Positions 11,298 to 40,829 are shown, counted from the first letter of the stretch. The stretch is DNA of 64,000 nt from an uncultured Acidimicrobiaceae bacterium (GCA_963779735.1 CAVZZJ010000009.1:189622-253621); one strand, 5' to 3'. The notes: generated by a model not told the origin, from the sequence alone. Numbers and translations are program-made.

Positions 11298-11299
11298 CC

Positions 11300-13507: not shown

Positions 13508-13604
13508 AAAGGTTCACGGTCAGGCGGCGGAGCGGCCAGGGCAACCCGCTCGACAGGATGGCGGCACGTACCCGATGGCGTGCCTCACGCACCCGCTGCG
13601 TCGG
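13508..13604 (-). repeat. comM/yifB 5'-fragment repeat, copy A (att-like)
   Basis: A 97-bp segment nearly identical to 40662-40757 (3 differences, one of them a 1-nt indel). The minus strand encodes [29 protein letters not shown] with no continuation of comM. Confidence 0.7.
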
Positions 13605-13650
13605 GGGTTGGGAGCAGTGGGCCGCTGCAGTGGGACTCAGGATTGGCCGA

Positions 13651-14412
13651 TCATCGGCGCCGAGCGACGAAGTACGCTCGAGCGCAATCGTCATTCGGGT
13701 CTTCGCCAGCTGGGTCAGTGACCTCCAGAAGGGTGAAGCGTGGCGCCAGCGCGGATTCGATCCTCCCAAGCCCCACGCCAAGTTCCCGAATCCGCTCATG
13801 ATGGAGGATGAACCGGTCCTCTCCCACATGCTCGAATACCTTGATTTCCCAGATCCACAGGTCGTCATGGTCCAGCTGGACATCCATGATGACAGTGTTG
13901 CCGTCGAAGTCTTGCACCCAGGGTTGAGCCTCACCGAGCTGGCGGAGCTCTCCGATGGTGTTGACGTCGAAAATGAACAGACCGCCTTCCACAAGGTGGT
14001 CATTGGTTCGCTCGAACAGATCGTTCCACAAGCTGAAACTGGGCAAGTGGTTCAAGGTGTCGAAGACGCACATGACGACGTCGAAGCGCTCACCGATGTC
14101 GAAGGTCGCGATGTCGCCCTCGATAAGACGAGCCTGAGGTACCTTGCCCCTCGCGATCGCCAACATCTCTGGTGACCGGTCCAAGCCGGTGAGTGATGGG
14201 AGGCTCGACAGCCCGGCGAGGATGGCTCCGGTGCCACACCCGAGTTCGAGCAGCGACGATGCCTCAGGGAGGTACTCGTCGATGGCCTCAAGAACGCGGG
14301 TGCTCTTGGGCTGGGGATCGTCCATGAGCGCGTCGTAAAAGCGGGCAAAGCTGTCGTAATCAAGCACGCTCCCATAGTGCCCGAAGACCGCCCTGACATG
14401 GAGAGGCCGCAC
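13651..14412 (-). CDS. class I SAM-dependent methyltransferase
   Basis: Within ORF 13651..14796. SAM motif I is LLELGCGTG. There are post-I acidic residues and a FIFDV motif. Putative GTG start at 14412. GC is lower than in the flanks. Confidence 0.7.
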   Translation of the reverse strand: MRPLHVRAVFGHYGSVLDYDSFARFYDALMDDPQPKSTRVLEAIDEYLPEASSLLELGCGTGAILAGLSSLPSLTGLDRSPEMLAIARGKVPQARLIEGDIATFDIGERFDVVMCVFDTLNHLPSFSLWNDLFERTNDHLVEGGLFIFDVNTIGELRQLGEAQPWVQDFDGNTVIMDVQLDHDDLWIWEIKVFEHVGEDRFILHHERIRELGVGLGRIESALAPRFTLLEVTDPAGEDPNDDCARAYFVARRR

Positions 14413-14603
14413 GTATCGGCGGCAACGGCTGAAGGGTCCGAATATTGGGACGGCATCGTCGCTGCCTTCGGAACGCCCCGTGATGCGATGGACTCCGACG
14501 AGGAAACTCCGAAGGCCGAACGAATTCGGGCAATCATCGCTTCGGGGAAACCGCTGTGCCCAAGGCCGTCGTCCGCCTGCCAAGCGACCCCCGACGAAAA
14601 TGG

Positions 14604-15044
14604 TCAATCGCTGTCGAGGACGTATCGGGGACCGGAGCCCCGTTTCGCAGCCAGGTCGTCGGGGTTCATCAATTTGCAGACCCCCAACGAGAGGCAGCCA
14701 CAGCCGATGCACGCACCGAGGCGGTCCCGCAGTCGTTCGAGCATGGCGATCCGGGCGTCGATACGGGGACGCCACGAGTTGGACAGCCGCTGCCAATCCT
14801 TCTGATTCGGGGTACGGCTCTTTGGCAACGAACCCAGAGCAGCGCGGATCTCCTCGAGGGAGAGCCCGACTTGCTGGGCTACGAGGATGAATGACACCCG
14901 CCGGATGACGTCGCGGGCGTATCGGCGCTGTCCCCCGTCGGATCGGGTGGCCGAGATGAGACCCTCGGTCTCGTAGTACCGCAGCGCCGAGGTGGCCACG
15001 CCGGTACGTTCGCTCACGGCGCCGATCGTCAACTCTGGTCCCAT
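14604..15044 (-). CDS. soxR: redox-sensitive transcriptional activator SoxR (MerR family, [2Fe-2S])
   Basis: MerR HTH (LTIGAVSERTGVATSALRYYE) plus the SoxR cluster motif CIGCGCLSLGVCKLMNP near the C-terminus. Confidence 0.85.
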   Translation of the reverse strand: MGPELTIGAVSERTGVATSALRYYETEGLISATRSDGGQRRYARDVIRRVSFILVAQQVGLSLEEIRAALGSLPKSRTPNQKDWQRLSNSWRPRIDARIAMLERLRDRLGACIGCGCLSLGVCKLMNPDDLAAKRGSGPRYVLDSD

Positions 15045-15068
15045 CGCCTCGAATCTATCTGGAATTCC

Positions 15069-15100
15069 CTTGACTTCAAGTGAACTTGAACAAGTACGGT
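15069..15100 (+). promoter_or_regulatory. SoxR-box promoter (-35 TTGACT, 19-nt spacer containing an inverted repeat, -10 TACGGT)
   Basis: TTGACT is at 15070-15075 and TACGGT at 15095-15100. The 19-nt spacer carries the perfect inverted repeat TTCAAGT-GA-ACTTGAA (15075-15090). It lies between soxR and the divergent oxidoreductase gene. Confidence 0.65.
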
Positions 15101-15127
15101 CGATACGAAACGAGCAAAGGAGCGTTC

Positions 15128-16108
15128 ATGCAGGCAATCCAGGTGGCACAGTTCGGCGGTCCAGAGGTGCTGGTGCCGGTCGACGTCCCCGACCCCATCG
15201 CCGGCCCGGGACAAGCGGTCATCGCCGCGACGGCAGCCGATCTCCTCTTCCTCGACGCCGTGATCCGCTCCGGCTTGGCCACCGAGTTCTTCCCGCTCCT
15301 GCCCCCCTACATCCCGGGCAACGGCGTTGCCGGCACCGTGGTCTCCGTCGGACCGGACACCGATGGCAACTGGATCGGTCGGCAGGTGGTGGCCCGCACC
15401 GGGGACAACGGTGGATCGGGAGGATACGCCCAGCGGGCGGTCGTTGCGGTCGATCACTTGGTCCCGGTTCCCGACAGCCTTGGCCTCCTCGAAGCCGCAG
15501 CCTTGCTCCACGATGGAGCCACCGCGCTGGGCCTGGTCGAGAGCTTTCCGATCCAATCCGGCCAATGGGTGCTCGTCGTGGGCGCCAGTGGCGGCCTCGG
15601 GGCCCTGTTGGTACAGCTGGCCCGCGTCGCCGGTGGACATGTCATTGGAGCAGCCCGTGGCCCGGCGAAACTGGACCTGGCCCTAGAGGTCGGCGCCGAC
15701 CTGGCGGTCGACAATTCCGATCCGGACTGGCCCAAAGCGGTGATCGAAGCGACCGGAGGTCACGGGGTGGACCTGGTGTTCGACAATGTCGGCGGACCCG
15801 TCGGCCTCGCCTCATTCGGGGCCATCGCCGCGGGCGGCCGGTTCTCCGCCCATGGTGCTCCCGCCGGCGGGTTCACCGTCGTCGACCCGACCGAAGCCGC
15901 CCGCCTCGGGGTGACCATACGAGGGATAGAACAGGCCCAGTTCTCCCCCTCCGACCTGATCCGGCTGACCAGAAGGGCGCTGGCCGACGGTGCCGAGGGG
16001 CTCATCCGTCCGATCATCGGACAAACCTTCCCGCTGGAACACGCGGCCGACGCGCACCGGGCCATCGAGACCCGCACCGTCATCGGGAAGACCTTGCTGG
16101 TCATCTGA
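15128..16108 (+). CDS. quinone oxidoreductase / zinc-type alcohol dehydrogenase superfamily (MDR) protein
   Basis: ATG at 15128 is preceded by AAAGGAG. N-terminus is MQAIQVAQFGGPEVL. The NAD(P) site is VVGASGGLG. C-terminus is GKTLLV. Confidence 0.8.
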   Translation: MQAIQVAQFGGPEVLVPVDVPDPIAGPGQAVIAATAADLLFLDAVIRSGLATEFFPLLPPYIPGNGVAGTVVSVGPDTDGNWIGRQVVARTGDNGGSGGYAQRAVVAVDHLVPVPDSLGLLEAAALLHDGATALGLVESFPIQSGQWVLVVGASGGLGALLVQLARVAGGHVIGAARGPAKLDLALEVGADLAVDNSDPDWPKAVIEATGGHGVDLVFDNVGGPVGLASFGAIAAGGRFSAHGAPAGGFTVVDPTEAARLGVTIRGIEQAQFSPSDLIRLTRRALADGAEGLIRPIIGQTFPLEHAADAHRAIETRTVIGKTLLVI

Positions 16109-16980
16109 TGCCACTCGACCACGCCCACGCCCAGTACCTCACCGACCACTATCGGGGACGCCTGGCCACCGTGGCAGCTGACGGCACGCCGCAGAACAAG
16201 CCCGTCGGCTACCACTACAACCCCGAGCTGGGCACCATCGACATCGCCGGGTTCAACATGGACACCTCGGCCAAGTACCGCAACATCGCCGTCCACCCGG
16301 AGGTGTCATTCGTGGTCGATGACGCCATCGGCGAGGGAGCTTCGGCCATGCGGTTCGTCGAGGTCCGCGGCCGGGCCGAACAAGCGCAGGTCAACCCGCC
16401 AGCTGACGCAGAGGGCCTGAGCGGGCACATCATCCGCATCCACCCGCGCCGGGTCGTGAGCTGGAACGCCGATCCAGACCGTCCCGGTCTGCAAACGCAG
16501 ACTCTGGTTCCAGCGGCCGGGCCGGAGAGCTCAACGGGCGAGCGCCCGACGCTCGGGACCGACGGCCTCGTCACTGACGAGGCCGCTACGGTCGTCGCCC
16601 GCCTGGTCGCCGAACTCCAAGCCGGCCTCGACACTCACGACGCCGACACCTTCAACCGCCACTTTGCCGCCGACGTCGTCTGGGGCAGCCCCTACGGCGC
16701 CACCGTCCTCGGCTACGACGAGCTCCACGCCATACACACCTCGCTGCTGACACGCGGTGTCGGCGGTCCGTCGTCGCGCTACGAGACCGTTCACGTCCTC
16801 TCCCCCACCCCAGATGTCGTCGTCGCCCACGTTCGCCGGGTCGCCCTCGACTCCGTCGGCCGACCTTTCGAACCACCCGCAAACCCCGGCGCCGGTTTCT
16901 CTGAAATGGCGCTCTACGTCCTCGTCCGCCGAGGGGGGGACTGGTGGCTCGCCGCTGGACAGAACACACCCATCGGCTGA
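16108..16980 (+). CDS. fusion: PPOX-class F420/FMN-binding split-barrel domain + SgcJ/EcaC (SnoaL-like) domain
   Basis: The ATG overlaps the upstream TGA (ATGA type). The N-terminal half (GRLATV..DGTPQNKPVGY..FVVDD) is PNPOx-like. The C-terminal half (D.F..HFA.DVVWGSPYG.., WWL.AGQNTPI) is SgcJ/EcaC-like. Confidence 0.7.
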   Translation: MPLDHAHAQYLTDHYRGRLATVAADGTPQNKPVGYHYNPELGTIDIAGFNMDTSAKYRNIAVHPEVSFVVDDAIGEGASAMRFVEVRGRAEQAQVNPPADAEGLSGHIIRIHPRRVVSWNADPDRPGLQTQTLVPAAGPESSTGERPTLGTDGLVTDEAATVVARLVAELQAGLDTHDADTFNRHFAADVVWGSPYGATVLGYDELHAIHTSLLTRGVGGPSSRYETVHVLSPTPDVVVAHVRRVALDSVGRPFEPPANPGAGFSEMALYVLVRRGGDWWLAAGQNTPIG

Positions 16981-17043
16981 CTTGGCGCGCCCCGCCGCCA
17001 GCTACATCGACCGATCAGCACCGGCTTCAACCAGGTAGCGACC

Positions 17044-17412
17044 GTGACGGCCCACCTCGACCGCGTCGTTCGCTTCTACCAAACGGTCTTCGACCCGGCG
17101 GTCACCTTCGAGATGGCCGCTACTGACGATCACCCCCGCATGGTTATCCTCGACCCCGACCTCGGCAGCGGCAGCGCCCTCAACGTCACCGAACAACCGA
17201 CGGATACGATCATCGGTGACCGCACCACGCCAGGTGGTCGCGGTCCAATCGACCACTACGACATCGCCGTCTCGTCCCGCGCCGATCTCGACCAGATACG
17301 CGACCGACTCGTCGCCGCCGACATCGGCACCATTCACCAGCTGGGCGACACCTGGTCGCTCTTCTTCCGCGACCCAGACGGCATGGAACTCGAAGTATGC
17401 ACGCCAAACTGA
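17044..17412 (+). CDS. VOC family protein
   Basis: 122-aa ORF. It is a paralog of 57886..58323, with shared GGRGPIDHY and FFRDPDG.ELEV segments. Confidence 0.7.
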   Translation: MTAHLDRVVRFYQTVFDPAVTFEMAATDDHPRMVILDPDLGSGSALNVTEQPTDTIIGDRTTPGGRGPIDHYDIAVSSRADLDQIRDRLVAADIGTIHQLGDTWSLFFRDPDGMELEVCTPN

Positions 17413-17526
17413 ACCCAACCGCAGACCCGCGGAATCCCTTATAGTGGACCGATTGCCCTGGTAGTTCTGTCCAGTTCCTGCGGCAAGACGCCAGCTTGCT
17501 TCGTACTCAGAACGACGAGGAATCCG

Positions 17527-19089
17527 TCACGGGGCGCTATTCGCGTGCCGACCCGGGCCAGCGTTGAATCTGGAGTACTCCTCCGCGCTGGACACCTTGG
17601 TGAATCCTTCCTGAACGAAGGGGGGTGGAGGTGACCCCAGCGGTGCCAACTGCGTTTCGGTGGGCTCACTGCAACAGAACCACGGCTCGGTGAGTCGGGC
17701 TCGCTCCCCCGCCGGTCCTTTCGAGATGGCCCCGCGGGGCGGCGGAGGGCGGAAGATCGCCGCCTTGGCACGGATCAGGGCGTCAATTTCCCCGAACGTC
17801 TGGGTGGCGGGCTGCTCAACGCGCTCTTCGACCAGCGTGGCCAACTCCTGCTGCAGTTGGTCGACCGCGGGATAAGGATGCGACCACGTCCAACCCAGCC
17901 GGGCCAAGTCGTACGGACCAAGGTGTGGTGTCATAAAGGCGCGCCCGAGCAGCAGGGAACCCTCCGGGACCAACAAGCGCACGGTGTACTGCACCGGGTC
18001 CACGTTGGGCACAAGGTCGTGGGCCATCACGAAGTCAACGAGGTCGACCAAGTCGTTGATCGTGGTCCAAGGGGTGAAAGGCAGCCATGAGGGGCGAACC
18101 TCGATGCCGTGGTCGCGCAGGAGCACTACGGCCTTAGACGCGTCGGCCACGCTATGACCTTTGTCGAGATGCTCGAGAATCATGTCGCTCACCGACTCGA
18201 ACGCCGAAACAACGAACGCACAGCCGGCTTCCGCCAACTCGGGCCACAGCTCTGGGTGGCGCAGGATGTGCTCTACCTTGGTCGTGCAGTCGAACGTCAG
18301 GTGCGGGTGGCGCTGGTGGATGGCCGCAACGACCCGGCGAGAGTGCAGCGGGGTATTGAGGAAATCGGGGTCGGCGAACGTGATGTGGCGAGCGCCGGCG
18401 GCAACCAACTGATCGACATCGGCGACGACTGCGGCTTCCTCCACGGCCCGCACTCTCCCGTCGTAGACGACTGGCACGGGACAGTGCCGGCATCGATGCG
18501 AGCAGCCCCGGCTGGCCTCGACCGATCCAACCAGTCGCTCCTCGCCGTCGACCGCCAATCGGGCGTAGCGATCGAGGGGCGGCAACAGGTGGCGGGCTGG
18601 CACTCGCGCCCTGACCCGGGTCAGGTGGATCGTGGGACCGGGGTCTTGACCCCCGGCCCACGCCACCAGGCCCGGTTCATACTCACCCGCGATGACCGCA
18701 TCGGTGGCCGATCTGACGGTGAGACTCCGGCTCACCTGTGCGTAGAGTCCATAGAAGCACAGCGGAAGCTCGGGCCGCCGGGTCCGGATCGTGTCGGCGA
18801 CGCGCAGCGCCAGGCGCATCGCGGTGTGCATCGGCACGGAAAACGCGATTCGGTCGGCCCAATCAACAGCGGCCGCGTCGAGCGGGTCGACGGCGAGGTC
18901 GACACATCGCACATCGTGGCCAACGGCCAGCAGCGCCGTGGCGGGCATGGCCAACTGCAGCGGCTGGTGCCCCAGCTCATAGGTGGAAATCAGAAGGACC
19001 CGCGTGAGCTCGAGCCTACCGGGGAGCTGACAGCGCCGCGACTCAGCGTATATGTACGTCGAGAGCGGCCTCTGCTCGGCGGAGGGCAT
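17527..19089 (-). CDS. B12-binding-domain radical SAM protein with C-terminal Cys-Cys tail motif (FCCSEP)
   Basis: ORF 17527..19146. The N-terminus has a Rossmann-like B12-type segment (RVLLISTYELGHQPL). The radical-SAM cluster motif is GCSHRCRHCP. PWFCCSEPTE lies about 49 aa from the stop. Start taken at Met 19089, which overlaps the ATP-grasp gene by 47 nt. Confidence 0.8.
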   Translation of the reverse strand: MPSAEQRPLSTYIYAESRRCQLPGRLELTRVLLISTYELGHQPLQLAMPATALLAVGHDVRCVDLAVDPLDAAAVDWADRIAFSVPMHTAMRLALRVADTIRTRRPELPLCFYGLYAQVSRSLTVRSATDAVIAGEYEPGLVAWAGGQDPGPTIHLTRVRARVPARHLLPPLDRYARLAVDGEERLVGSVEASRGCSHRCRHCPVPVVYDGRVRAVEEAAVVADVDQLVAAGARHITFADPDFLNTPLHSRRVVAAIHQRHPHLTFDCTTKVEHILRHPELWPELAEAGCAFVVSAFESVSDMILEHLDKGHSVADASKAVVLLRDHGIEVRPSWLPFTPWTTINDLVDLVDFVMAHDLVPNVDPVQYTVRLLVPEGSLLLGRAFMTPHLGPYDLARLGWTWSHPYPAVDQLQQELATLVEERVEQPATQTFGEIDALIRAKAAIFRPPPPRGAISKGPAGERARLTEPWFCCSEPTETQLAPLGSPPPPFVQEGFTKVSSAEEYSRFNAGPGRHANSAP

Positions 19090-20251
19090 CCTCGACCATC
19101 TTCGCCGTCGGTCCCCGGGCAAAGATGAAGCCCAAGTAGCGATCACCTTCGGGGAGGGGGATTACCGGCCGTCCCGACGCGATGGCGATCTCGATACCGA
19201 CGACTCCTTCGATGGCGCGGGCCCGCTCTTGGCCCGAGACCCCCTCGAGCACCCCGGCCGATCGGATCGGGAGCATCATCACGCCCGACGCCTCGGGCTC
19301 CCGAGCGAGACCGTCGAGCTCCATACCGAGAGCGTGACGGACAATGACCTCTTCGAGGCTGATCCCCGCACCAAAGCGCAAGGCCCGGGCACACAAGCCG
19401 CCGATGGAGCGAGCGGCCAGCTCGAGAATGGTGACGACACCTGTGGCGCTGAGGCGCAGCTCGATGTGCACAGGGCCTTCTACGAGTCCCAGTGCCGCGG
19501 CTGCTCGGGCCGCGGTGGCCTCAATGGCGGCAAGGATCGAGGGCGATTGCCGGGACGGCGTGACGTAGATGGTCTCCTCGAAAAAGGGGCCGTCCATGGG
19601 ATCGGGCTTGTCGAACACGGCCAGCACCCTCAGCTGGCCTCCCAAGAGCAGGCCCTCAACCGCTACCTCGGCGCCGGATACGAAGCTCTCCACGAGCAGG
19701 GGCTCTGGACTATCCCCCAAGATGGCCCGGATACGTACCCCGGCCGCGGCGGCCTGGGTCGCGTCGTCGGCGCGAATGACGCCCTGGCTGGCCGAAAGTG
19801 AGATGGGCTTGACCACGCACGGGTACCCAACTTCAGTCGCTGCCGAGGCGACGTCCGCGTCACGAGCAACGATTCGGTAGGCAGGCTGGGGCAGCGAGGC
19901 AGCGGCCAGGCAATCGCGCATGCGCCCCTTGTCCTTGGTGTTGGCGACCGCCTCGGGCGGGTTGTGACGTAGCCCCAGCCGCGCCGCTGACGCCGCCGCG
20001 ACCGCCACTCCCTGGTCATCGACCGCCAGGACGGCGTCGAGCGGTCTTCGCCGATGGAGAGACATGATGGCCTCCACGGCGGCGTCGCCTGCCTCGAGTG
20101 GCACGACGACGGCCCGATCGCCCATGAACCCGGCCAAGGCCTGGCGGTGCTCGGAGCCCACTACGACGTCGACACCCAGACGAGCGGCCGCGGCCAGGAA
20201 GTCCGCGGCTCGGTAGGTCCCGGTTGGCAGGAGCAGGAGGATGCGGGGCAC
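19043..20251 (-). CDS. ATP-grasp domain protein (carboxylate-amine ligase type)
   Basis: 402-aa ORF with a pre-ATP-grasp N-terminus, GYPCVVKP, ESFVSG.E..VEG and GP.HIELR, typical of ATP-grasp ligases. Confidence 0.8.
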   Translation of the reverse strand: MPRILLLLPTGTYRAADFLAAAARLGVDVVVGSEHRQALAGFMGDRAVVVPLEAGDAAVEAIMSLHRRRPLDAVLAVDDQGVAVAAASAARLGLRHNPPEAVANTKDKGRMRDCLAAASLPQPAYRIVARDADVASAATEVGYPCVVKPISLSASQGVIRADDATQAAAAGVRIRAILGDSPEPLLVESFVSGAEVAVEGLLLGGQLRVLAVFDKPDPMDGPFFEETIYVTPSRQSPSILAAIEATAARAAAALGLVEGPVHIELRLSATGVVTILELAARSIGGLCARALRFGAGISLEEVIVRHALGMELDGLAREPEASGVMMLPIRSAGVLEGVSGQERARAIEGVVGIEIAIASGRPVIPLPEGDRYLGFIFARGPTAKMVEDALRRAEAALDVHIR

Positions 20252-20296
20252 AGCCCTAGGATGGTACCGAGCGACGAAGGCTGAGGCGAAGGCATT

Positions 20297-20941
20297 ATGA
20301 CCGAGATCGGGACCAACGGCGTGCCCGTCCTGCGCGTGACCGACGCCGCTCTGGCCATGGTGCTCGAGGTGCGCGCCAGCGAGGACGGCGAGGAGTCACT
20401 CGCCCTCTGGCTCGAGATCAGCGGTTCGAGCGGGGACGCCTACACCTACGACATGTATTTCCAGTCGGCCGCCGACGCCCAGCCCGAGGATTGGTCCGCT
20501 GCGCCTAACGGACTGGCGCTCGTGGTCCGCAGCGACAGCGTCGAAAAGATGCGCGGGTCCGTCCTCGACGTCGGTGAGGGCGGGATGGTCATCGAGAACC
20601 CCAACCATCCTCCGGCACCGGCCGCCGCCAGCCCGGCGATGGCAGGTCCACCGGCCGACCTCAGCGGGGATGTGGCCCAGCGCATCCTCCAGGTCCTCGA
20701 AGAACAGATCAACCCGAGCATTGCGGCTCACGGCGGCCGGGCCGACCTCGTGGCGGTGGAGGATGACGCCGCCTACCTCCGTTTGAGCGGAGGCTGCGCG
20801 GGGTGTGGGATGGCCACGGTGACCTTGAGTCAGGGGATCGAAGTGGCCATACGCGAATCGGTTCCTGAGATCATTCGGGTGGTCGACGTCACCGATCACG
20901 CGGCGGGAACCAACCCGTACTACGAGGCAGCCAAGAAGTAG
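20297..20941 (+). CDS. NifU/Nfu-type Fe-S cluster assembly protein (degenerate HesB-like N-domain + Nfu C-domain)
   Basis: The C-terminal domain has INP.IAAHGG...V.......L.L.GGCAGCGM (CxxC). Confidence 0.75.
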   Translation: MTEIGTNGVPVLRVTDAALAMVLEVRASEDGEESLALWLEISGSSGDAYTYDMYFQSAADAQPEDWSAAPNGLALVVRSDSVEKMRGSVLDVGEGGMVIENPNHPPAPAAASPAMAGPPADLSGDVAQRILQVLEEQINPSIAAHGGRADLVAVEDDAAYLRLSGGCAGCGMATVTLSQGIEVAIRESVPEIIRVVDVTDHAAGTNPYYEAAKK

Positions 20942-20944
20942 GTT

Positions 20945-21676: not shown

Positions 21677-21973
21677 GTGTGCAGTCTTGCCGGGCCAGCT
21701 TCATGGGGCAATCCCTGAGGTGCCCGAAAGCTCGGTTCGGTGCCCCGTACGGCAGTCGAGGCGCAGCCCGACCTTCTCGAGGGTGGATCTGAGCCGGTGG
21801 CGCGCTTCACGAAGCGCAAGCGCGAATCTGGCCGAGCGGTCAGCGCGAGTTCAGCAGCTTGCGCAACCGCTCAGCGGAATCCCTTGCCGACCCGCTTCTA
21901 CCTTCAAGGACCGTGACAGCATTCCACTACGACGCGCGCCCGGTGGGGACAGAGGATCGACCACTACCAGGGG

Positions 21974-23176: not shown

Positions 23177-23335
23177 ATTGGCGGGACCCGATCTTTGTGA
23201 TGAGGTCGTCTTTGGACACTCCGCCGATCGCGCTGCGCTGTGCCCGCCTAAAGGTACGCGACGAGTGACGAATCGCGCGATCGGAACAGATTCGGGGCCG
23301 ACGTCGCCAATTCGGGGTTGTCCAAGGTGGAATGC

Positions 23336-24145: not shown

Positions 24146-24376
24146 TGCGAACAGCGTCCCATCTTTTGGGTCTGCGTCGCGAGCAGCGCACCACCTTTGA
24201 AGTCAATCGCCTGACGACCAAGCGCAACGCCGGCGCTAACCATAAGGAGCAATACTCGCTGAGAGCGATGCTGCTCGAATCTGCGTTGATTCGCTTTAGG
24301 TTTGGTGAAGGCGTTTTCTTATCGCGGGACGGGTGCGTACCGAGTAATTTGGCCAAACCTGGATAGGAGCCCGGGT

Positions 24377-29144: not shown

Positions 29145-29181
29145 CTAGCGCCAAGTCTCGGAGACAGCTGATCGGCGACCG

Positions 29182-30345: not shown

Positions 30346-30348
30346 TGC

Positions 30349-32287: not shown

Positions 32288-32288
32288 T

Positions 32289-33413
32289 TCAGAGGTTGCC
32301 TCGGCGAGCTTGATCGCGCTCGATCGCTTCAAAGAGTGCCTTGAAGTTACCCTCGCCAAAGCCGGTGGCACCCTCTCTCTGAATAACTTCAAGGAAGAGC
32401 GTAGGGCGATCGGTAATCATCTCTGAGAAGATCTGCAGTAGGTATCCGCCGGAATCCTTGTCGACCTCTATTCCGAGTTCCTCAAGGTGTGTCCACGGCA
32501 GATCGAACTCCCCGCAGCGTTCGCGGGCATCCTCGTAGTAGGTAGATTGGAGGTGTAAGAACCGGACGCCTCGGTGCGACAGCGCGTCCACGGCGGCAAT
32601 CGCATCTTGAGTTCTCATTGCGATGTGCTGCACTCCTGGGCCACCGTAGAAGTCGAGAAACTCGGCGATCTGGCTCTTCTTGAGCCCTGGTGCCGGCTCA
32701 TTGATTGGCATCACGATTCCGGACCAATTGTGTACCACCGTGGAACGAAGCGCTGAATACTGTGTCGAGATCTGCTCCGCATCGAAATGAAGCATCTGGC
32801 TGAAGCCCAGAACCTCCTCATACCAGGCAACCCATTCGTCGAGGCGCCCCTCCTCGACGTTGGTAACCACGTGGTCAATCGAGTCGAGGCCGGGTGTGGC
32901 CCAGGGGGGTGCTGGCGGAAGCCGCTCGTGCGAGAAGTACGGGGCCCATAAACCGTTGTGCATTGAGCGATCCACGAAGACGAGTTGGATGTTTCCGTAC
33001 GCGACGATCGTCGCTGTAGTTACCGACCCGCCCTCACATTGAACGGTCGACGGTTCGGCGATGACCGCAGCTCCGCGACTCTCGGCCATCGCGACTACCG
33101 ATTCGGGGTCCTCGACCCGCCACGCCAGGCGGCGCACCCCGTCCCCGTGCTCGAGAACGTATTGGGCGACGTCAGAGTCAGCCGCCAGCCCGGCCGTGAT
33201 CAGAAACCGGATATCCCCCTGCTCCAACAGGTAGGAGACTCGGTCGCGGAGCCCGGTCTCTGGCCCGGCGTAGGCAGAGACATGAAATCCAAAGCCTGCG
33301 CACAACCATGCCGTGACGGCCCGTGCGTTTCCCACCCACCACTCAACATGATCCCAGGCGAGCAACTGATCGGCCACGGTAGAGGTTGATCTCAGATTGG
33401 ACGTGGAAGTCAT
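32289..33413 (-). CDS. hppD: 4-hydroxyphenylpyruvate dioxygenase
   Basis: 374-aa ORF with two VOC modules and the C-terminal signature GFGEGNFKALFEAIERDQARRGNL. Confidence 0.9.
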   Translation of the reverse strand: MTSTSNLRSTSTVADQLLAWDHVEWWVGNARAVTAWLCAGFGFHVSAYAGPETGLRDRVSYLLEQGDIRFLITAGLAADSDVAQYVLEHGDGVRRLAWRVEDPESVVAMAESRGAAVIAEPSTVQCEGGSVTTATIVAYGNIQLVFVDRSMHNGLWAPYFSHERLPPAPPWATPGLDSIDHVVTNVEEGRLDEWVAWYEEVLGFSQMLHFDAEQISTQYSALRSTVVHNWSGIVMPINEPAPGLKKSQIAEFLDFYGGPGVQHIAMRTQDAIAAVDALSHRGVRFLHLQSTYYEDARERCGEFDLPWTHLEELGIEVDKDSGGYLLQIFSEMITDRPTLFLEVIQREGATGFGEGNFKALFEAIERDQARRGNL

Positions 33414-33503
33414 GCCTCTGGACTACTCACCTGCCATAAAAAGGTCAACAGAGCAGCTATTAGTTGGGCTATATGACTATGTACGCGCCGATATAATGAT
33501 CAT

Positions 33504-33986
33504 ATGAGTCATTCTGAGACCCTTGATGCGATCGATCGGCGTCTTTTGGTCGCTCTCACACATGCGCCACGCGTCGGGATGCTCGCCCTTGCCCGTGCTG
33601 CCGGCGTGGCCCGAAACACGGCGCAAGCTCGGGTGAATCGAATGGTCGCCCTTGGGATCATCACCGGATTCGGACCGGAGCTCGACCTGCGTCGACTCGG
33701 CTATACGGTGTCTGCCTTTGTAAGCGTCGAAATCGCGCAGGGCCGCGGCTCGTTAGTTGACGAAGCTCTTATTGCGATCCCCGAGGTCGTAGGGGCATGG
33801 ATGACGACTGGACCGGCCGACCTGTTGTGCCATGTCGTCGCGCATGACAACGATCATCTGGGAGAGGTGATCAATCTGCTCCTCAATATACGCGGGGTTA
33901 CCCGCACCACGACCTCCCTGTTGCTGACCACGCGGGTGCCCCCCCGAACGCTTCACCTGCTCACCGATCCGAAACAGAGCACTTAG
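33504..33986 (+). CDS. Lrp/AsnC family transcriptional regulator
   Basis: It has an HTH (LD..DRRLL..L....R......LA...GV...T...R) followed by an AsnC/RAM domain. It is divergent from hppD. Confidence 0.85.
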   Translation: MSHSETLDAIDRRLLVALTHAPRVGMLALARAAGVARNTAQARVNRMVALGIITGFGPELDLRRLGYTVSAFVSVEIAQGRGSLVDEALIAIPEVVGAWMTTGPADLLCHVVAHDNDHLGEVINLLLNIRGVTRTTTSLLLTTRVPPRTLHLLTDPKQST

Positions 33987-34047
33987 CAAATCGTAGAACC
34001 CCAGAATACGGATTGCGTTGCGGGCATGGCCGCCGAATGTTTCACCG

Positions 34048-35271
34048 TTACGACCCGGCGGTCACGCCCGGCAGGACAGTGCCGCAGAGAGGTTCAGCGC
34101 CCTTGACCAACTTGAAGCCGTTACCGACGAGCTTGACCATCCATGTGCAGCGGATGGAGGCGAGTACATGGGTGCGGTCGTTGATGTTGATGGTGCGCCC
34201 CCCCCACAGTCCGAGAGCGCCCCAGCTATGGATGCCCTGTAGGGCGCTCAAGATCGAAGCCGAGGTGGACTTCGATCCGGCGGACTTGAGAGCTTGCAGC
34301 AGGAGGCCTACGGAGGTGTACCCGAAGTACTCGGCGTCGGTGGGCACGCCGGTCGTACCGGCCGCGGCCAGATCCGCCTGGAACTGCTTGGTGGCGGAAG
34401 TCCCCATCTCGACCGGTTCGAAGCCAAGAAGAAAGTAGGCATCCTGCGCCTGCTGGACCGCACCTGGGCCGGCTCGGAGGATGTCGGCGCCGTAGCCGTC
34501 CGGCAGTATTGCGGCCTTGAGGTTGACGCCCATCTGGCGCAGGGCGGTGATGAGCGCCAAGCCGGTGTTCGTCTCGACCGCGGGGTAGATCGAATCCACG
34601 TGTGCCGCCTTCAGCGCCAGGGCGACGGGCCCGACGTTTGTGCTGCCGTAGGGGAGGTTGGAGTTGACGTAGCCCGGCTTGAGACCGGCCGCCACCGCCG
34701 ACTTGGCGACGCCGATGGCGGAGTCGGCCGACGCCGGTGAGATGCCGTAGCCGAGCGTGCCGACGGTGGTGGCCCCGAGTAGCTTGAGCAGCCGCCCGAA
34801 GGTGGAGGTGACGGCGGTGATGTGGAGCGCCCCCTCGACCGAGAACATGTTGGTGTCGGTCGCCCATTCGCTGGCGTCCACGGGGGCCCCGATCACTGGG
34901 ATGTGCTGGGACATCAGGTATGGCGCGGCGGCAAACGTGACGGCCGACTCGGCGAGGATCACGTTCACGTGATCCTCGGCCACGAGCCGCTGCGCGGTCG
35001 ACAGTGCGCTGGACGGCGACGTTTGGGTGTCTCCTAATACGTACTTGATGTTGTAGCCCTCGTGCTTAGCCAGCACGATGCCGGCCTCGATGCCGTTGAG
35101 GTAGGCCTTGGTGCCCGAGGCGCCCGGGCCGGTGTAGTCCTCGAGGACTCCGATGGTAATTGTCTTTCCACCGCCCTCGCTAGCGCTGGAGTTAGACGAA
35201 CCAAACGCGGCTGCTAGCAGCGCGACCACTGCCGCGACCGCGATGGTCCTGACCGTGTTCTTGATCATCAA
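34048..35271 (-). CDS. ABC-transporter substrate-binding protein (branched-chain amino acid / LivK type), secreted
   Basis: 407-aa ORF. The signal peptide is MMIKNTVRTIAVAAVVALLAAAF. It is homologous to the ORFs at 53745 and 55266. Confidence 0.8.
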   Translation of the reverse strand: MMIKNTVRTIAVAAVVALLAAAFGSSNSSASEGGGKTITIGVLEDYTGPGASGTKAYLNGIEAGIVLAKHEGYNIKYVLGDTQTSPSSALSTAQRLVAEDHVNVILAESAVTFAAAPYLMSQHIPVIGAPVDASEWATDTNMFSVEGALHITAVTSTFGRLLKLLGATTVGTLGYGISPASADSAIGVAKSAVAAGLKPGYVNSNLPYGSTNVGPVALALKAAHVDSIYPAVETNTGLALITALRQMGVNLKAAILPDGYGADILRAGPGAVQQAQDAYFLLGFEPVEMGTSATKQFQADLAAAGTTGVPTDAEYFGYTSVGLLLQALKSAGSKSTSASILSALQGIHSWGALGLWGGRTININDRTHVLASIRCTWMVKLVGNGFKLVKGAEPLCGTVLPGVTAGS

Positions 35272-35335
35272 GACCTCCTGGCTTATTTTTCTCAGGCGCG
35301 TGCGGAACCGGAACCACGCGAGCGGCGAGAGGGAT

Positions 35336-36535
35336 TCACCGCTTGGCGTCGATCTTTAGCTTGTAGAGTTGCTCGGCGTTGGCGCAGAGGGCTTTGGCCC
35401 TGACCGCAGGGGGGATACCGGCGAACGCCTCCTTAACCCATTCCGATGGCATAAGCGACGTGCCGCCGCAAGGACCTGGGGAAAGACTCGTAGGATGCGG
35501 GTAGTCGGTTGAGAACATGAAGTTGTTGGGGTAGGCGTCGAGCAGCCGCAGTGCGGTGCGGTCGAACCAGAACGTCGAGTAGCACTGCCGGGCGAAGTAC
35601 TCGCTAGGCAGCAAGGGGAGAGTGGTGTTCCCATAGGATCGCCACTGCCAATCGAGCGCCTCCAGGTAAAAAGGCAGATGCCCGAATCCGGCCTCGACCG
35701 AGACGAGTTTCAGCCGGGGGAAACGCTCACATAGGCCGCTGAGCAGCATCGATCCGATCAATGTGGCCTGATCCATCAACGCTCGCCCGAGTCCCTCCAC
35801 CGCACCGACCCGCGCCGCTCCCGGATGTGCCTCCATGAGCGCCAGGGACTTGGCTTCGACCCCCTGGCTGGACTCCTTGGCGTAGAACCCGACATGGAAG
35901 TTCACCGGCACGTCACACTCCTGGGCGAGGGCATAGAGCGGATCCCAATACGGATCCACGTAACGGGGTAAGCCGATCTGTTCCAACCGATTCGAGAACA
36001 GGACGCCCCGGAACCCCAGATCGACACACCTCTGCAGCTCTCGGATCGACGCGTCGAGATCCCAGAACGGCAGCATTGCCATGGGCACCAGCCGTTCAGG
36101 ATCGGCGGCCGCCCAGCCCAGCGCGAAGTCGTTGTAGGCGCGCACGCAGAGCTCGGAAAGTTCGAGCTCGAGCTTCATGAACTCGCCCGCGCCGGAGCCC
36201 ACGAGGTTCGGATAGAGGATCTGGACGGCCACTCCGAATTCATCCATCCGCTTCAACCGGTCCCGCGAATCGAAGCTGGCTGGGTCGCAGTCCTCGTACT
36301 CCTTGGGACCAGATGGTGGGAATTCCTTCCACCCCGCCACAGAGCCGAACCCGACCGGCGCCAACCACCGAGATCCGATCCGCCAGTGATGCACACCCGT
36401 GTCGGGGTGCTTCGTGACTTGAGGGACCTGTTCGTGGTATTTTGCCGGTATCCGAGCGGTCCAGATGTCAGCGGGCTCCGTGATGTGGCTGTCGGCGTCC
36501 ACGATCACATCGGAACTGATCACACCAGCGTTCAT
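35336..36535 (-). CDS. amidohydrolase_2 family protein (ACMSD/LigW-like metal-dependent hydrolase/decarboxylase)
   Basis: 399-aa ORF with N-terminal I.D.DSH..EP and C-terminal F.TDYPH motifs. Confidence 0.8.
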   Translation of the reverse strand: MNAGVISSDVIVDADSHITEPADIWTARIPAKYHEQVPQVTKHPDTGVHHWRIGSRWLAPVGFGSVAGWKEFPPSGPKEYEDCDPASFDSRDRLKRMDEFGVAVQILYPNLVGSGAGEFMKLELELSELCVRAYNDFALGWAAADPERLVPMAMLPFWDLDASIRELQRCVDLGFRGVLFSNRLEQIGLPRYVDPYWDPLYALAQECDVPVNFHVGFYAKESSQGVEAKSLALMEAHPGAARVGAVEGLGRALMDQATLIGSMLLSGLCERFPRLKLVSVEAGFGHLPFYLEALDWQWRSYGNTTLPLLPSEYFARQCYSTFWFDRTALRLLDAYPNNFMFSTDYPHPTSLSPGPCGGTSLMPSEWVKEAFAGIPPAVRAKALCANAEQLYKLKIDAKR

Positions 36536-36643
36536 TTCCGTCTCCTCGTCACCTTCCGGCGCCTGCGTGGCGTCGCACTCTTGTTATGGCCGCCGGATCG
36601 GCCGCATCTCGCCAAATTCCAAGCTCGACCGGCCCGGCATGAG

Positions 36644-38071
36644 TCATCCTCGCTGGTCAACCATGGGCACTGATGGCTCGACCGGGTGAAAGTTGAACAA
36701 CCGTTCGGCATTGCCTCGCAGGACCTTGCGCCGCTGCTCATCGGTCACGTCGGCGAACCACTCCTTCGCCTTGTCGAAGGTGTGCGGCCAGTAGGTGCCG
36801 TGGTGTGGAAAATCCGTTTCGATCATGATGTTGTCCTCGCCCATGAGATCGAGATGCCTCATGCCGACCGGGTCGTGCATGAAGCAGCCGTACACATGGT
36901 CCCGGAATACCTCGCTTGGGAACCGCATTTCGTGGGCGGTTGCCGCACGGGCTTCAATCGACTCCTTTGCCAGCTTGCGAGCTTCCTCGGTGAGGAGCAC
37001 ATTATTCTCCGGGTCAAACGGATTGGTTATACGGTCGCGACTCATCTCATGCATTGCGTCGGCGGCTTGGAGAACCGGAGGGATCCACCCGATGTTGCCC
37101 TCCGAAAAAGCCAGCTTCAGGCTCGGGAACCGCTCGAAGTTGCCGCTGTTGAGCCACTCGACGAGGGTTGTCTGCCCCGACAGCGCCCCGGTGACCATGC
37201 TGGCCGGACGAGGGGAACGCTTCTTCGTGTCGTCTCCCAGGAACTGTCGGATTTTCTCCGAGACCGCTCCCATGTTGTCGAGGAGCTTGGCGATGTCGGG
37301 GTCCGCGGCGAGCTCCTTCAGTCTGGCCGGATCGCCGGCCGCCTTCATGATCTCGTCGATCTTGGTGAAATCGACCTCGTGGGCCATCGTGTCGCCTCCT
37401 CTGCTGGTCCCGGCGTGGGCGCACAGCGGGACATTGGCCTCGCTGACGACTGAGTAGAGGGGATCCCAGGCTTCGTCGTGGATCGGCGGGAAGCCGAAAT
37501 CGTGGGGCGACATGGCGATCGACACCGCATGTGCCCCCTTGCCGATAGCGCGCTCGGCTTCCTTGGCGGCCAAGTGGCCGTCCCACATTGGGACGAGGGC
37601 TAAAGGGATGATCCGGCCTGGTATCGCGGCGGCGAACTCGTCGATGAGCCAGTCGTTGTACGCCTGAATGCACAGCATAGCGAGTTCCTTGTCGCGCACG
37701 CCGTAGAACATGCTGCCGGCGAACCCCGGCAGGTTGGCGAAAATCACCGCGGCCTGCACCTTGTCGGCGTCCATGGCCGCAGCTCGGGCCTTCGGGTCGT
37801 AGCAGGCTTCGGGGATGTCGCTCCAGCGCATTGGTGCGAAAGGGCTCGGACGGCTCTCGGGCGGCCAGACCGCTCCCGCCGTGGCTGCGCCGCCGATGGG
37901 CTGTCGAATGCGATCCTCGACAACCCATGCCTCACCGCGGTCGTCGCTGACCCAGCGCGGCCCGAGCTCGCGGTATTTGGCCGGCAGCCGATCGACCCAC
38001 GTGTTGGGTGGCTCGATCACATGGTCATCAACCGAGACGATCCAGTCGTCAGGCGAGGTGTTATTGAACAT
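36644..38071 (-). CDS. amidohydrolase_2 family protein
   Basis: 475-aa ORF with VSVDDHV.EP at the N-terminus, ETDFPH near the C-terminus, and an inserted helical segment. Confidence 0.8.
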   Translation of the reverse strand: MFNNTSPDDWIVSVDDHVIEPPNTWVDRLPAKYRELGPRWVSDDRGEAWVVEDRIRQPIGGAATAGAVWPPESRPSPFAPMRWSDIPEACYDPKARAAAMDADKVQAAVIFANLPGFAGSMFYGVRDKELAMLCIQAYNDWLIDEFAAAIPGRIIPLALVPMWDGHLAAKEAERAIGKGAHAVSIAMSPHDFGFPPIHDEAWDPLYSVVSEANVPLCAHAGTSRGGDTMAHEVDFTKIDEIMKAAGDPARLKELAADPDIAKLLDNMGAVSEKIRQFLGDDTKKRSPRPASMVTGALSGQTTLVEWLNSGNFERFPSLKLAFSEGNIGWIPPVLQAADAMHEMSRDRITNPFDPENNVLLTEEARKLAKESIEARAATAHEMRFPSEVFRDHVYGCFMHDPVGMRHLDLMGEDNIMIETDFPHHGTYWPHTFDKAKEWFADVTDEQRRKVLRGNAERLFNFHPVEPSVPMVDQRG

Positions 38072-38218
38072 CGTTACCCTCCTCGGACTTGCTCCGGCTC
38101 TATCGCCCGACCAGTTGGTGAGATCGCCAGTGGATCGGGTCCTGCCGGCGCGGCGAACCTAAGGTCCTTCGGTGGGCTGGAACTAGTGTGGTCGCGATCT
38201 CGCAGCCTGGCCCCACGG

Positions 38219-39460
38219 TCACCAGCCTTTGAAGACCCGGCCGACGGTCTCCGCCACCTCGGGATCGGCCTCGCCGGTTGGAGGTGTGAGGATCTGCTCG
38301 ATACTGAACCCGCAGGCGTCCACGACCGGAGCAAGCTTCTCCACATCAAAGCGATAGACGTCGGCCGCGTTTTGGCCGAGGATCCGACGAGTGTCCTCTT
38401 CCGAGACATTCCCGGCACCAAAGAGGGCCTGGAGGTGGTCGATGGTCTTGTTCCAGGTGCCCTCTGGATGCGCGAAGTCGGTGCCATACATCATGTTGGC
38501 GACACCAATGGACTCGCGCATTTCGAGTTCTGCCCTGGACATCAGCGACGCACCGACGTAGCACTGACGGGCCCAGTACTCGCGGGGCGAGCGGAGGACG
38601 ACTTCATGCTGGTTGGTGAGCATATTGACGTCGTGGCGCTCCGCGCCAGCGGTTCGCACCCACCCGTCGTGCATGTGATCGAGGGTTCCGGGGATCCAAT
38701 CGGAATTCTGTTCGGTGAACACCAAGCGGAGGTTCGGGTGGCGCTCGAGGACCCCTCCGTAAATGAGGAACCACAGCGGGCGATGGCCGAACCAGTTGAC
38801 TTCCATCAGCATCATCTGGGTCGCGACCGGTGAGCCTCCGAACGCTATGAACTCCGGATCGTATCCGACGCCTCCGTGGAAGGTCGCCGCCAGCTGTTCC
38901 TCTTCGAGCGCCGACCAGATCGGCTCGTAATAGTCATCGAACAGTGGCGGCAGGCCGCGGTACTGCCCGTCGAGTAGCACACCTCGCATGCCGGCCTGGC
39001 TCGCCCGGCGGATCTCGGCGACCGCGGTGTCTACATCCTCGTATGTAATCAGAGCGAGCGCTGCTTGGCGGTCGTGATCGAAGAACTCTCCGAGCCATCG
39101 GTTGTAGGCCCTACATCCTGCGGCGAACTTCGCGGGATCGAATCCGGGAAGACTCCGAGTGCCGGGTATGGGATAGAAGGGGAAGATCGGAAAGTTAGGG
39201 ATGAGAACCTCGGCGGCCACACCGTTCGCGTCGAGGCCCTTCAGCCGTATTTCGACGTCAGCAGGGCTGTGGAATGCCTTCCTGCCCGCCGCATCCGTAA
39301 ACGAAGACTCGAAGCTGGCCATGAGCTCACCCGCCGCGGCGAACATCCCGAACCACCCATCGAAGTCCTCGTGGTACTTGCTTTCCAGGTACTCCTTCGT
39401 CCGGGCGATCGGGAAATCGATATGGCAATCTGCCGAGATGATTAGTGCACGGTCGGTCAT
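38219..39460 (-). CDS. amidohydrolase_2 family protein
   Basis: 413-aa ORF with ISADCH at the N-terminus and YGTDFAHPE near the C-terminus. Confidence 0.8.
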   Translation of the reverse strand: MTDRALIISADCHIDFPIARTKEYLESKYHEDFDGWFGMFAAAGELMASFESSFTDAAGRKAFHSPADVEIRLKGLDANGVAAEVLIPNFPIFPFYPIPGTRSLPGFDPAKFAAGCRAYNRWLGEFFDHDRQAALALITYEDVDTAVAEIRRASQAGMRGVLLDGQYRGLPPLFDDYYEPIWSALEEEQLAATFHGGVGYDPEFIAFGGSPVATQMMLMEVNWFGHRPLWFLIYGGVLERHPNLRLVFTEQNSDWIPGTLDHMHDGWVRTAGAERHDVNMLTNQHEVVLRSPREYWARQCYVGASLMSRAELEMRESIGVANMMYGTDFAHPEGTWNKTIDHLQALFGAGNVSEEDTRRILGQNAADVYRFDVEKLAPVVDACGFSIEQILTPPTGEADPEVAETVGRVFKGW

Positions 39461-39732
39461 AACAACTCCTCTGTTAGAAGCGTCGAATACGCGGGCGGGT
39501 TAGAGATGCTTGCCGTTAGGAACCGGGACCGAGTGGCCCAAGCCGGACCAGTTGCGTGAGGCGGTGGCAGCCAGGCTGGGCCAACCTGCCTTTCAAGGTC
39601 CGCAACTTGCATGAGCCCCCAGCCCTCCTCCACCGTGCAGCGTTGAATCGAACCACAGGGTCCGTTACTGCGCAAGTGATCCATCCGCATCTGACCCAGA
39701 TAGTCAATCTGGCCCGATGATTTCCCGATCAG

Positions 39733-39749
39733 CTATACATTCTGTATAG
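39733..39749. promoter_or_regulatory. inverted repeat CTATACA-TTC-TGTATAG upstream of an AsnC-family gene (possible operator)
   Basis: A perfect 7-bp inverted repeat with a 3-bp spacer lies 31 nt upstream of the GTG at 39780, in the divergent intergenic region. Confidence 0.3.
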
Positions 39750-39779
39750 TTCGTTCAACCTCAATGGGAAGGATCCGGC

Positions 39780-40310
39780 GTGGTCGCGAATAACTCTCTC
39801 GATGCCCTCGACGTGGCGCTCATCAACGCACTTCACGAGCATCCGCGCATCGGGATGCTTGAATTGGCCCGCGTCACGGGCGTCGCACGCAACACCGTCA
39901 CGGCACGGCTTCAGCGTCTGGAGGACGTCGGCATCATCAGCGGCCACGGCCCCGAACTCGATGTCTCTGCCGCCGGATTCGAAGTGCACGCATTCGTGAT
40001 CCTCGAAATCGCCCAGGGCGCCATCGAGGACGTCGAATCGGTTCTGAAGGAACAGCCGGCAGTACTCGAAGCGTACGCGATCACTGGCAACGGCGACGTG
40101 CTCTGCCGGGTTGCCGCCAGCTCCCACGCCGCGATGCAGAAAACCCTGGTGGACCTCAACAAGGCCTCCTCTATCGTCCGTTCGACCAGCATGATGGTCC
40201 TTTCCGAGGTCGTCCGCTGGCGCACCCTTCCCCTGCTCGAGCGCCACGCGGCAGCTACCGCCGGTCGGTCGACTCTGCGGCTACCCAGGCCGGCGCTTGG
40301 TCAACAGTGA
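39780..40310 (+). CDS. Lrp/AsnC family transcriptional regulator
   Basis: 176-aa ORF. It is a paralog of 33504..33986 (LD..D..LI.AL...PR.G.LELAR.TGVARNTV.ARL.RL). Confidence 0.8.
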   Translation: MVANNSLDALDVALINALHEHPRIGMLELARVTGVARNTVTARLQRLEDVGIISGHGPELDVSAAGFEVHAFVILEIAQGAIEDVESVLKEQPAVLEAYAITGNGDVLCRVAASSHAAMQKTLVDLNKASSIVRSTSMMVLSEVVRWRTLPLLERHAAATAGRSTLRLPRPALGQQ

Positions 40311-40586
40311 GCGAAGCGAGACCACTCCTCGAAAGCACGTGTCTTCGGCGGGGGATGGATCACATTGGGGAAGACGCACAAGCGGTCGGGACGAAATCAG
40401 AACTCGAGGGGTTTGACCCGATGTCACACCCGGCCAGGTTCACGGTTGACCAACCCGGCACAGCGGCTACGGACGGCAGGACAGGCCGGATCTAAGGATC
40501 AGAACGAAGCTGGGCGGGTGCGATTGCCTACTGGCGACAACTCCGGACACATAATGCCTGCTCAGGTCCCTGATCGTGGGACGCTA

Positions 40587-40829
40587 CTACGTGCACATAC
40601 CTCTCCAGATCGGTGCTCCAGGGCCATGATTCGGTCTTACATTTTGATATCTCGCCGGCGCAAGGTTCACGGTCAGGCGGCGGAGCGGCCAGGGCAGCCC
40701 GCTCGACAGGATGGCGGCACGTACCCGATCGCGTGCCTCACGCACCGCTGCGTCGGGAAGACCGACGATGGTGAAGCCGGGCAGACCATTGGAGAGGTGG
40801 ACCTCGACGGATACGGGTTGCCCGATCAC
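40587..40829 (-). pseudogene. comM: comM/yifB 5' fragment (contains repeat copy C, 40662-40757)
   Basis: It encodes (V)[58 protein letters not shown], the ComM N-terminal Lon-like domain. After that it reads unrelated sequence to a stop. No ATPase domain follows. Confidence 0.65.

Follow-up and report, generated by a model that had tools for sequence, protein, structure and literature searches.

The DNA analysed here is a window of 64,000 nucleotides (the whole stretch, 64 kb) from an uncultured Acidimicrobiaceae bacterium (GCA_963779735.1, CAVZZJ010000009.1:189622-253621), and it contains repeated fragments of comM, the gene of the Mg-chelatase-like ATPase ComM/YifB. Four such fragments are present. 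All derive from the 5' part of the gene, all lie on the minus strand, and all share one end, directly after codon 70 (..TVNLAP), at positions 13504, 24718, 27133 and 40657 and in the nucleotide context ..TTGC(G/T)CC. The fragments are referred to below as scars and the stretches between them as modules. Positions are those of the whole window throughout, and L-numbers denote comparison contigs or loci. The scars, the modules and the block in which they lie are as follows.

13414-45040: the whole insertion, 31,627 bp, beginning 2 nt past the stop codon of a DNA ligase gene and ending ahead of a Band7 gene.
13414-13503, minus strand: spacer of G-rich low-complexity DNA and a short non-canonical stretch, following scar 1.
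13504-13604, minus strand: scar 1, comM codons 37-70, boundary at 13504, usual arm motif missing (tblastn, alignments and junction list).
13651-24717: module A1, about 11.2 kb, between scars 1 and 4 (Pfam, and precomputed Pfam of identical genes in L085, L086 and L103).
24718-24900, minus strand: scar 4, newly found, in which about 100 nt from upstream of comM lead into the start codon and codons 1-17, with codons ~63-70 following after an internal deletion.
24901-27132: module A2, about 2.4 kb, between scars 4 and 2, with one gene, for a major facilitator superfamily (MFS) transporter, at 25216-27021 on the plus strand (Pfam).
27133-27205, minus strand: scar 2, diverged comM codons ~48-70, boundary at 27133, then a degenerate arm motif, ATCCAGATAGTCAATTGGTAAAG.
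27206-40656: module B, about 13.5 kb (Pfam, and precomputed Pfam on L081-L083 and L087).
40505-40656, minus strand: conserved left arm of module B, with the motif AGATATCAAAATGTAAGA straight after the boundary.
40657-40826, minus strand: scar 3, comM codons 14-70, boundary at 40657, 88% amino-acid identity to the ComM of L004.
40856-42219: remnant of module C, with the gene of a WHD_Rv2258c-type methyltransferase (N-terminus deleted) and a disrupted AlkA-like glycosylase gene, stopping at ~42219 (Pfam).
42220-45040: rest of the block, 2.8 kb, comprising a C-rich spacer and unrelated genes (a HicB-like/DUF4097 pair and a DUF2090 gene); it holds no comM scar and is missing in relatives along with the array.

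A preliminary description of this DNA had listed three of the copies, at 13508-13604, 27138-27205 and 40662-40757, and these were recovered by alignment at the same positions. The first and last differ by two substitutions and one 1-nt indel (96% identity over 90 nt, repeat family D6), and the copy at 27138-27205 is a diverged one that carries the exact 23-mer CAGGCGGCGGAGCGGCCAGGGCA in common with both of the others. The window contains this 23-mer exactly three times, with 0 occurrences expected (100 shuffles). A tblastn search of the 64 kb with the full-length 500-aa Acidimicrobiaceae ComM of L004 bore out the common orientation, the common left boundary and the comM N-terminal coding: the minus-strand translations of the three copies correspond to ComM residues 14-71, 37-70 and 51-66, and the ATPase part of comM gave no match anywhere in the window. 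The three copies are thus real, while their count was incomplete. The fourth, scar 4 (24718-~24900, the right end being approximate), was recognized by blastn to L004 9927-10019, by a tblastn match to MLAAISAATRTGAVGRP and by pairwise alignments to L004 and L092. After its internal deletion it reads ..GGGTCACGGTCACTTGGCGCC, that is, codons ~63-70, and at its downstream boundary, which is that of the other scars, ..CACTTGGCGCC is followed, past the break, by ATCCACAGG.

The scar fragment is nearest the comM of uncultured Acidimicrobiaceae and Acidimicrobiales (83-91% amino-acid identity), and all copies in the window are relics with truncated 5' ends; in scar 3 the truncation point and the stop codon of the upstream methyltransferase gene are 30 nt apart. 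Contigs from other samples cross each of the scar junctions at 99-99.9% identity: L081-L087 cover scars 2 and 3 (among them L085 and L086 for scar 2, and L081 and L082/L083 for scar 3), and L103-L105 reproduce the junction of scar 1 with the ligase gene.

With four scars, the modules measure 11.2, 2.4 and 13.5 kb, followed by a truncated fourth (>1.4 kb). The preliminary description had seen two near-equal modules of ~13.5 kb; since the fourth scar splits the 13.6-27.1 kb segment into two, the near-equal 13.6-kb spacing is a coincidence. The enclosed modules have no sequence in common with each other in the repeat comparison of the window. A larger duplicated unit marked by the methyltransferase genes beside scars 1 and 3 was considered and rejected, the two proteins being unrelated (E = 0.035).

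Displaced comM copies with the boundary seen in the window were found beside intact comM in related Acidimicrobiia. The native locus, which is conserved in many Acidimicrobiia, has the order trmD-rplS-DUF2469-yraN-(ECH-NfeD-Band7)-variable region-comM-dprA, and in the relatives one to three displaced comM 5' copies lie directly upstream of intact comM-dprA. The copies of L004, L092, L093, L098, L102, L109, L110, L192/193 and L198 stop at the same codon as those of the window. L004 has two displaced copies, 4.5-4.7 kb apart, ahead of a 500-aa comM and then dprA; L092 has three and L193 two. One displaced copy each is found in L098-type contigs, with a single beta-helix gene between the copy and comM, in L109, with an abhydrolase gene and a small gene in between, in L110, at 8 kb from comM, and in L198-type short-read contigs, at 8.6 kb from a 499-aa comM. 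The segment present in duplicate measures 224-265 bp and runs from about 16-55 nt ahead of the ATG through codon 70. In a given genome, the displaced copies match the attached one at only 77-94% identity, which argues that the attached 5' end was imported and not locally copied. The full-length comM (499-500 aa) sits downstream of the modules in L004 and L198, so that the open reading frame (ORF) is kept intact by the new 5' end.

The array therefore stands at its cognate target in L004, L092, L098, L109, L110 and L198, in agreement with the proposal of the preliminary description that the copies are att-like and stem from serial integration at comM of elements bringing their own comM 5' end. 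In the window it does not, as neither the comM body nor its native neighbours (dprA, yraN, rplS) occur within the 64 kb. Within L004, a 730-bp stretch formed by the end of an MDMPI gene and a comM 5' copy occurs twice with 100% identity, at 280-1013 and 4954-5689 (4.7 kb apart), and is either a very recent tandem module duplication or an assembly repeat.

The DNA on the other side of the break is also conserved. In 14 distinct junction DNAs, about 15 variable nt after the break are followed by (T/G)GTAA. The arm motif of module B is unique in the window (0 expected), and native comM has partial similarity to the arm motif at the same offset. The ~130-bp arm beside scar 3 has a counterpart with 79% identity in the arm of an L004/L092 module whose cargo is different. 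Of the 120 best-matching short ORFs with a ChlI domain in the protein collection, 55 break right after NLAP and continue with a recurrent tail, x-x-[FYV]-x-x-G-[KN]; because the candidate list favours short sequences, this figure shows recurrence, not frequency. The DNA fold of the arm (z = +2.2) was no better than that of shuffles, a consensus fold of three sequences was also without support, and Rfam gave no match over the whole window or, at a relaxed threshold, over the arm.

Other identities considered for the arm and the break were rejected. A Xer/dif-like motif, judged by eye, does not fit, the spacing being unsuitable for a dif site and the native comM sequence not dif-like; nor does a Tn7-like element end starting at TGT, as the DNA from the boundary to TGT is not comM-derived and Tns genes are absent. 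The arm motif had four matches in viral contigs, all due to chance and in low-GC phages, and the comM N-terminus was found in one provirus contig (L191), where another site is concerned, as its comM reaches about residue 247. A second recurrent comM break was observed after ..GAGLDLP (about codon 84) in the metagenome ORFs P0020, P0041, P0044, P0052 and P0076, and several distinct ORFs end in GLDLPQ-stop or GLDLPH-stop, which suggests another insertion hot spot 14 codons past the first.

The chromosomal site of the array could be defined by comparison with two close relatives. L111 and L112, obtained in a Joint Genome Institute (JGI) metagenome search with the ligase (92% amino-acid and about 87% nucleotide identity), match window 3951-13413 and, 3 nt further on, 45041-48626, and thus present an empty site. 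Because their flanks are colinear and join 13413 to 45041, the segment 13414-45040 is a single insertion relative to L111/L112. The gene order in the relatives is ligase-Band7-exonuclease-SnoaL-SDR, and in more distant relatives the ligase adjoins the 5'-3' exonuclease gene. The GC content is 56-68% inside the block, compared to about 70% outside. Left of scar 1 lies conserved backbone (Rieske ... LigD primase-polymerase, PHP, ATP-dependent DNA ligase) with ordinary metabolic genes. The array is cut at both ends: neither an arm motif nor a comM body adjoins scar 1, and module C stops at ~42219, past which L082 has another flank. The preliminary description had asked whether the repeat-bounded blocks are present or absent as units; presence/absence polymorphism is visible only for the whole 31.6-kb block, which the relatives lack, and not for single modules.

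The scars are best read as attL-type junctions of a site-specific system whose elements replace the 5' end of comM. We propose, with a probability of roughly 0.75, that they arose by serial site-specific insertion at comM with 5'-end replacement, and that the window array is a fossil fragment, at an ectopic site, of an accretion array once proximal to comM, the repeats being relics that mark neither an active element nor a nearby comM. In the proposed mechanism, Acidimicrobiia comM would offer a fixed insertion site right after codon 70 (..R-R-V-T-V-N-L-A-P), which modules of about 1.6-13.5 kb would enter by site-specific recombination. At its comM-proximal end each module would carry its own ~225-265-bp segment (ribosome-binding site and codons 1-70), and at its distal end a short conserved arm, the about 15 variable nt and then (T/G)GTAA. 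The incoming 5' segment would fuse to the resident comM body, and the prior 5' segment would be shoved upstream as a scar ending exactly at the site. Repeated insertion, with new modules presumably entering beside comM, would give a scar-module-scar-module array ahead of the gene. The window would then hold a piece of such an array (four 5'-truncated scars with modules A1, A2, B and the truncated C), severed from comM and from the remaining array, and now within the 31.6-kb block just downstream of the DNA ligase gene.

How the block may have reached this site is hinted at by an 18-nt near-direct repeat with 17 of 18 positions in common, at 13453-13471 in the G-rich spacer and at 45044-45062 in the native DNA of the right junction. 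Its local score is 15.5, compared to 10.0 ± 1.5 for shuffles (maximum 14.5), and as the sequence is of low complexity it constitutes weak evidence; it may trace a short-homology or illegitimate crossover that brought the block in.

The insertion process is probably recombinase-mediated, with a recombinase that acted in trans or was lost. The earlier observation that the enclosed segments carry no recombinase was confirmed, as no recombinase domain was found by Pfam in the genes of modules A1, A2 and B, in agreement with precomputed Pfam on near-identical contigs. Likewise, none was found in about 10 distinct complete modules (1.6-8.6 kb) between scar and comM in relatives, so the integrase-less state is the rule among such modules. 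Phage_integrase in particular had no match in the window modules, in the about 10 complete modules, or upstream of comM in four other genomes. A long element at the codon-70 site of L102 contains HTH regulators, an HTH_17 protein and a serine recombinase of 222 aa about 9 kb from the junction, and an L004/L092 module holds a C-terminal relic of a homologue of this recombinase, which is only suggestive. The enzyme could be the serine recombinase of rare autonomous elements that mobilise or leave behind recombinase-less modules; it could instead be a host enzyme acting in trans.

Several observations weigh against serial insertion with 5'-end replacement. No recombinase is tied to the site, as neither the window modules nor the about 10 complete modules elsewhere contain one, and the element of L102 is the sole long recombinase-bearing element there, a single occurrence whose far end lies outside the data. 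No circular or empty-site (attB/attP) forms were observed in the assembled contigs. Scar 1 has no arm motif. Scars 1 and 3 are 97% identical despite their independent origins in the model, which therefore has to invoke gene conversion or else two donors sharing one comM allele. The view of the host covers the 64-kb window, and a comM with its own array elsewhere in the host is possible. In addition, many of the comparison contigs are nanopore assemblies with frameshifts.

The alternative that survives best, and which we regard as possible but doubtful, is an integron-like standing platform, in which recombinase-less cassettes would use the ~225-bp comM 5' segment as their recombination site, a host recombinase would act in trans, and the window would be a displaced sample. 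The complete modules of the relatives fit this view, in that several have one or two genes and all are recombinase-less, as do the constant size of the duplicated segment and the recurrence of the arm motif in dozens of junctions. Recombinase-less modules moved by host Xer at pdif sites provide a precedent. However, no conserved recombinase gene accompanies the site: beside comM-dprA in L001 and L004, and just upstream of comM in L007, L019, L026 and L058, where yraN is not close by, no recombinase was found, and Pfam recognized only ordinary genes. The arm has no attC-like folding, gene orientation inside the modules is mixed, and loss of recombinases from ordinary integrative elements, as in CIMEs (cis-mobilizable elements) and degraded tycheposons, explains the same picture. 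In a similarly tentative form, codon 70 might be the docking site of a previously undescribed gene-capture system of Acidimicrobiia, in which recombinase-less cassettes of one to a dozen genes would be stacked, and possibly excised, by a recombinase encoded elsewhere, for which a host enzyme and a small serine recombinase of the L102 kind are candidates. If so, comM would stay intact while a variable metabolic array grew ahead of it, and pieces of the array could move to other chromosomal sites.

It is very unlikely that the array is still in situ at comM, with the comM body and an integrase-bearing active element just past the left edge of the window, as the preliminary description had supposed. 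The orientation of the scars is compatible with such an arrangement, since comM is on the minus strand and its body would be expected to the left. Against it, scar 1 lies within 92 nt of the ligase stop codon, with 90 nt of G-rich low-complexity DNA in between; dprA, yraN, rplS and the comM ATPase part are all missing from the window; and the 13.4 kb to the left are conserved backbone that runs colinear with the block-free relatives (about 87% nucleotide identity), which refutes the idea for these 13.4 kb.

We give just as little credence to the view that site-specific integration played no part and that the copies are a generic dispersed repeat or were produced by local segmental duplication or by homologous recombination. 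The near identity of scars 1 and 3 would suit it, and the two 100% identical copies of L004, with their 730 bp of flank, resemble a local tandem duplication or an assembly repeat. The copies are, however, in-frame homologues of the comM N-terminus, found only in same-strand arrays between modules without shared sequence, their boundary is nucleotide-identical across genera with a shared motif next to it, and the copies within a genome diverge as described above; the generic repeat that the preliminary description had named as a possible objection is thereby largely refuted. Finally, a chimera in this metagenome-assembled genome, to which the long-read assembly features (a run of about 75 C at 58447-58521, frameshifted genes), one short-read contig ending at scar 2 and another with a different flank past 42219 might point, is excluded for practical purposes because the independent contigs from other samples span every scar junction.

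The preferred reading, serial insertion with 5'-end replacement, has parallels among known elements. SXT/R391 integrative and conjugative elements (ICEs) insert in prfC and replace the 5' end of their target gene, and tandem arrays of them are known. The dusA-specific genomic islands (PMC4482086) are likewise integrative elements that replace a 5' end. Both resemble the comM system in inserting in the 5' part of a housekeeping gene, supplying a substitute 5' end and leaving the old end as a fragment. They differ in that they are large ICEs or prophages with their own tyrosine integrase beside the att site, whereas here no complete module has an integrase and no tyrosine integrase gene is adjacent. 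Further, modules of the comM system may consist of one gene only, the segment duplicated on insertion is a long one (about 225-265 bp), and the target is comM codon 70.

Arrays of the kind seen here are familiar from accretion systems. In the ICESt1/ICESt3 family, CIMEs occur in accretion arrays, and the four scars have the form expected of a CIME-like array, being same-orientation copies of an attachment region with one invariant boundary. Accretion with repeated partial target copies has also been described for Prochlorococcus islands built by tycheposons (bioRxiv 10.1101/2020.12.28.424599) and for the ssrA islands of Dehalococcoides (PMC3146451). In all of these, successive integrations push older elements out, partial target copies lie between the modules, and integrase-less remnants pile up. 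The targets differ, however: the 3' end of a tRNA or tmRNA gene there, the 5' end of a protein-coding gene here, and the window array in addition lies off its target gene.

comM itself is a target of Tn6022/AbaR and Tsy transposons (Faure et al. 2023, PMC10293859). The TnsF selector directs their insertion to the Walker B motif, at about residue 300, and TnsABC or a tyrosine recombinase takes part. These transposons have in common with the present system that comM is the specific target and that comM fragments flank the element; they differ in splitting comM without duplication or replacement of its 5' end, whereas here the break falls at codon 70, within the N-terminal ChlI domain, and an intact comM is restored. 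No genes for Tns proteins, TnsF or a tyrosine recombinase were found by Pfam in the window modules. Breaks of comM at about residues 297-302, in the Walker B region, were observed in L002 (3-779), L035 (9956-11312) and L098 (12241-13149). They agree with the published Tn6022/Tsy hot spot, and those of L002 and L035 (about residues 297-301) probably belong to the Tn6022/Tsy class. In L035 a serine-recombinase gene follows directly after the break, the enzyme being unlike that of Tn6022/Tsy.

Integrons, too, consist of arrays of small recombinase-less modules at one docking site, each with its own recombination site. They possess an IntI gene and a folded attC; since neither is present here, the array is not an integron, and its modules are often multi-gene, with their own regulators and mixed orientation.

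The comM gene is known as a magnet for resistance islands in Acinetobacter (at Walker B), and codon 70 adds another, distinct hot spot within the N-terminal domain. A limited literature search returned only the Walker B systems and no account of the codon-70 site; this is not proof of novelty. The site is used across uncultured soil and peat Acidimicrobiia, where the incoming DNA would repair the gene that it interrupts and metabolic modules would stack in ordered arrays. With dozens of distinct junctions in public metagenomes sharing one break point, it is a sizeable means of gene gain, apparently not described before, in a phylum-level group that has been little studied. The recombinase-free complete modules raise the testable question of which enzyme moves them.

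The genes of the modules in the window are largely metabolic and regulatory. Module A1 encodes a SAM-methyltransferase, a SoxR/MerR regulator, a zinc alcohol dehydrogenase (Zn-ADH), a PNPOx/SnoaL protein, a glyoxalase and a B12-radical SAM protein, and further an ATP-grasp ligase, NifU, DUF169, a periplasmic binding protein and a siderophore-interacting protein. Module B encodes a P450, a homogentisate-dioxygenase-like protein, a fumarylacetoacetase, an HPPD-like protein, two AsnC regulators, a periplasmic binding protein and three amidohydrolases. A homologue of the module C methyltransferase is the last gene ahead of a comM scar in L092. In the window module C is damaged at 41725/41726 and 41928-42042: 525 bp of L082/L083, which are otherwise 99.9% identical, are missing, a loss that takes away the winged-helix N-terminus of the methyltransferase, and the AlkA-like gene is disrupted as well.

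Outside the array, the C run at 58447-58521 has two interruptions and lies beside a Band7-like gene that aligns only in three frames (58650-59470); it may be either a genuine homopolymer tract or an artefact of long-read assembly. An 89-nt tRNA-Ile(GAT) predicted by ARAGORN at 9327-9415 is probably a false positive, as it overlaps a predicted coding sequence. Two tandem paralogues on the minus strand, at 53745-54977 and 55266-56591, are 86% identical over their first 300 nt, have matching sequence in L111/L112 and share a relative in module B, the periplasmic-binding-protein gene at 34048-35271. Short in-frame tandem repeats occur at 55103-55179 (four 15-nt copies) and 56794-56865 (four 12-nt copies). 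Lastly, a common motif, GCCATATTGGTGCCA(T/C)AGT, is found at 42430-42467 and 52421-52458, in both cases just upstream of plus-strand genes, and may be the operator of a common regulator.

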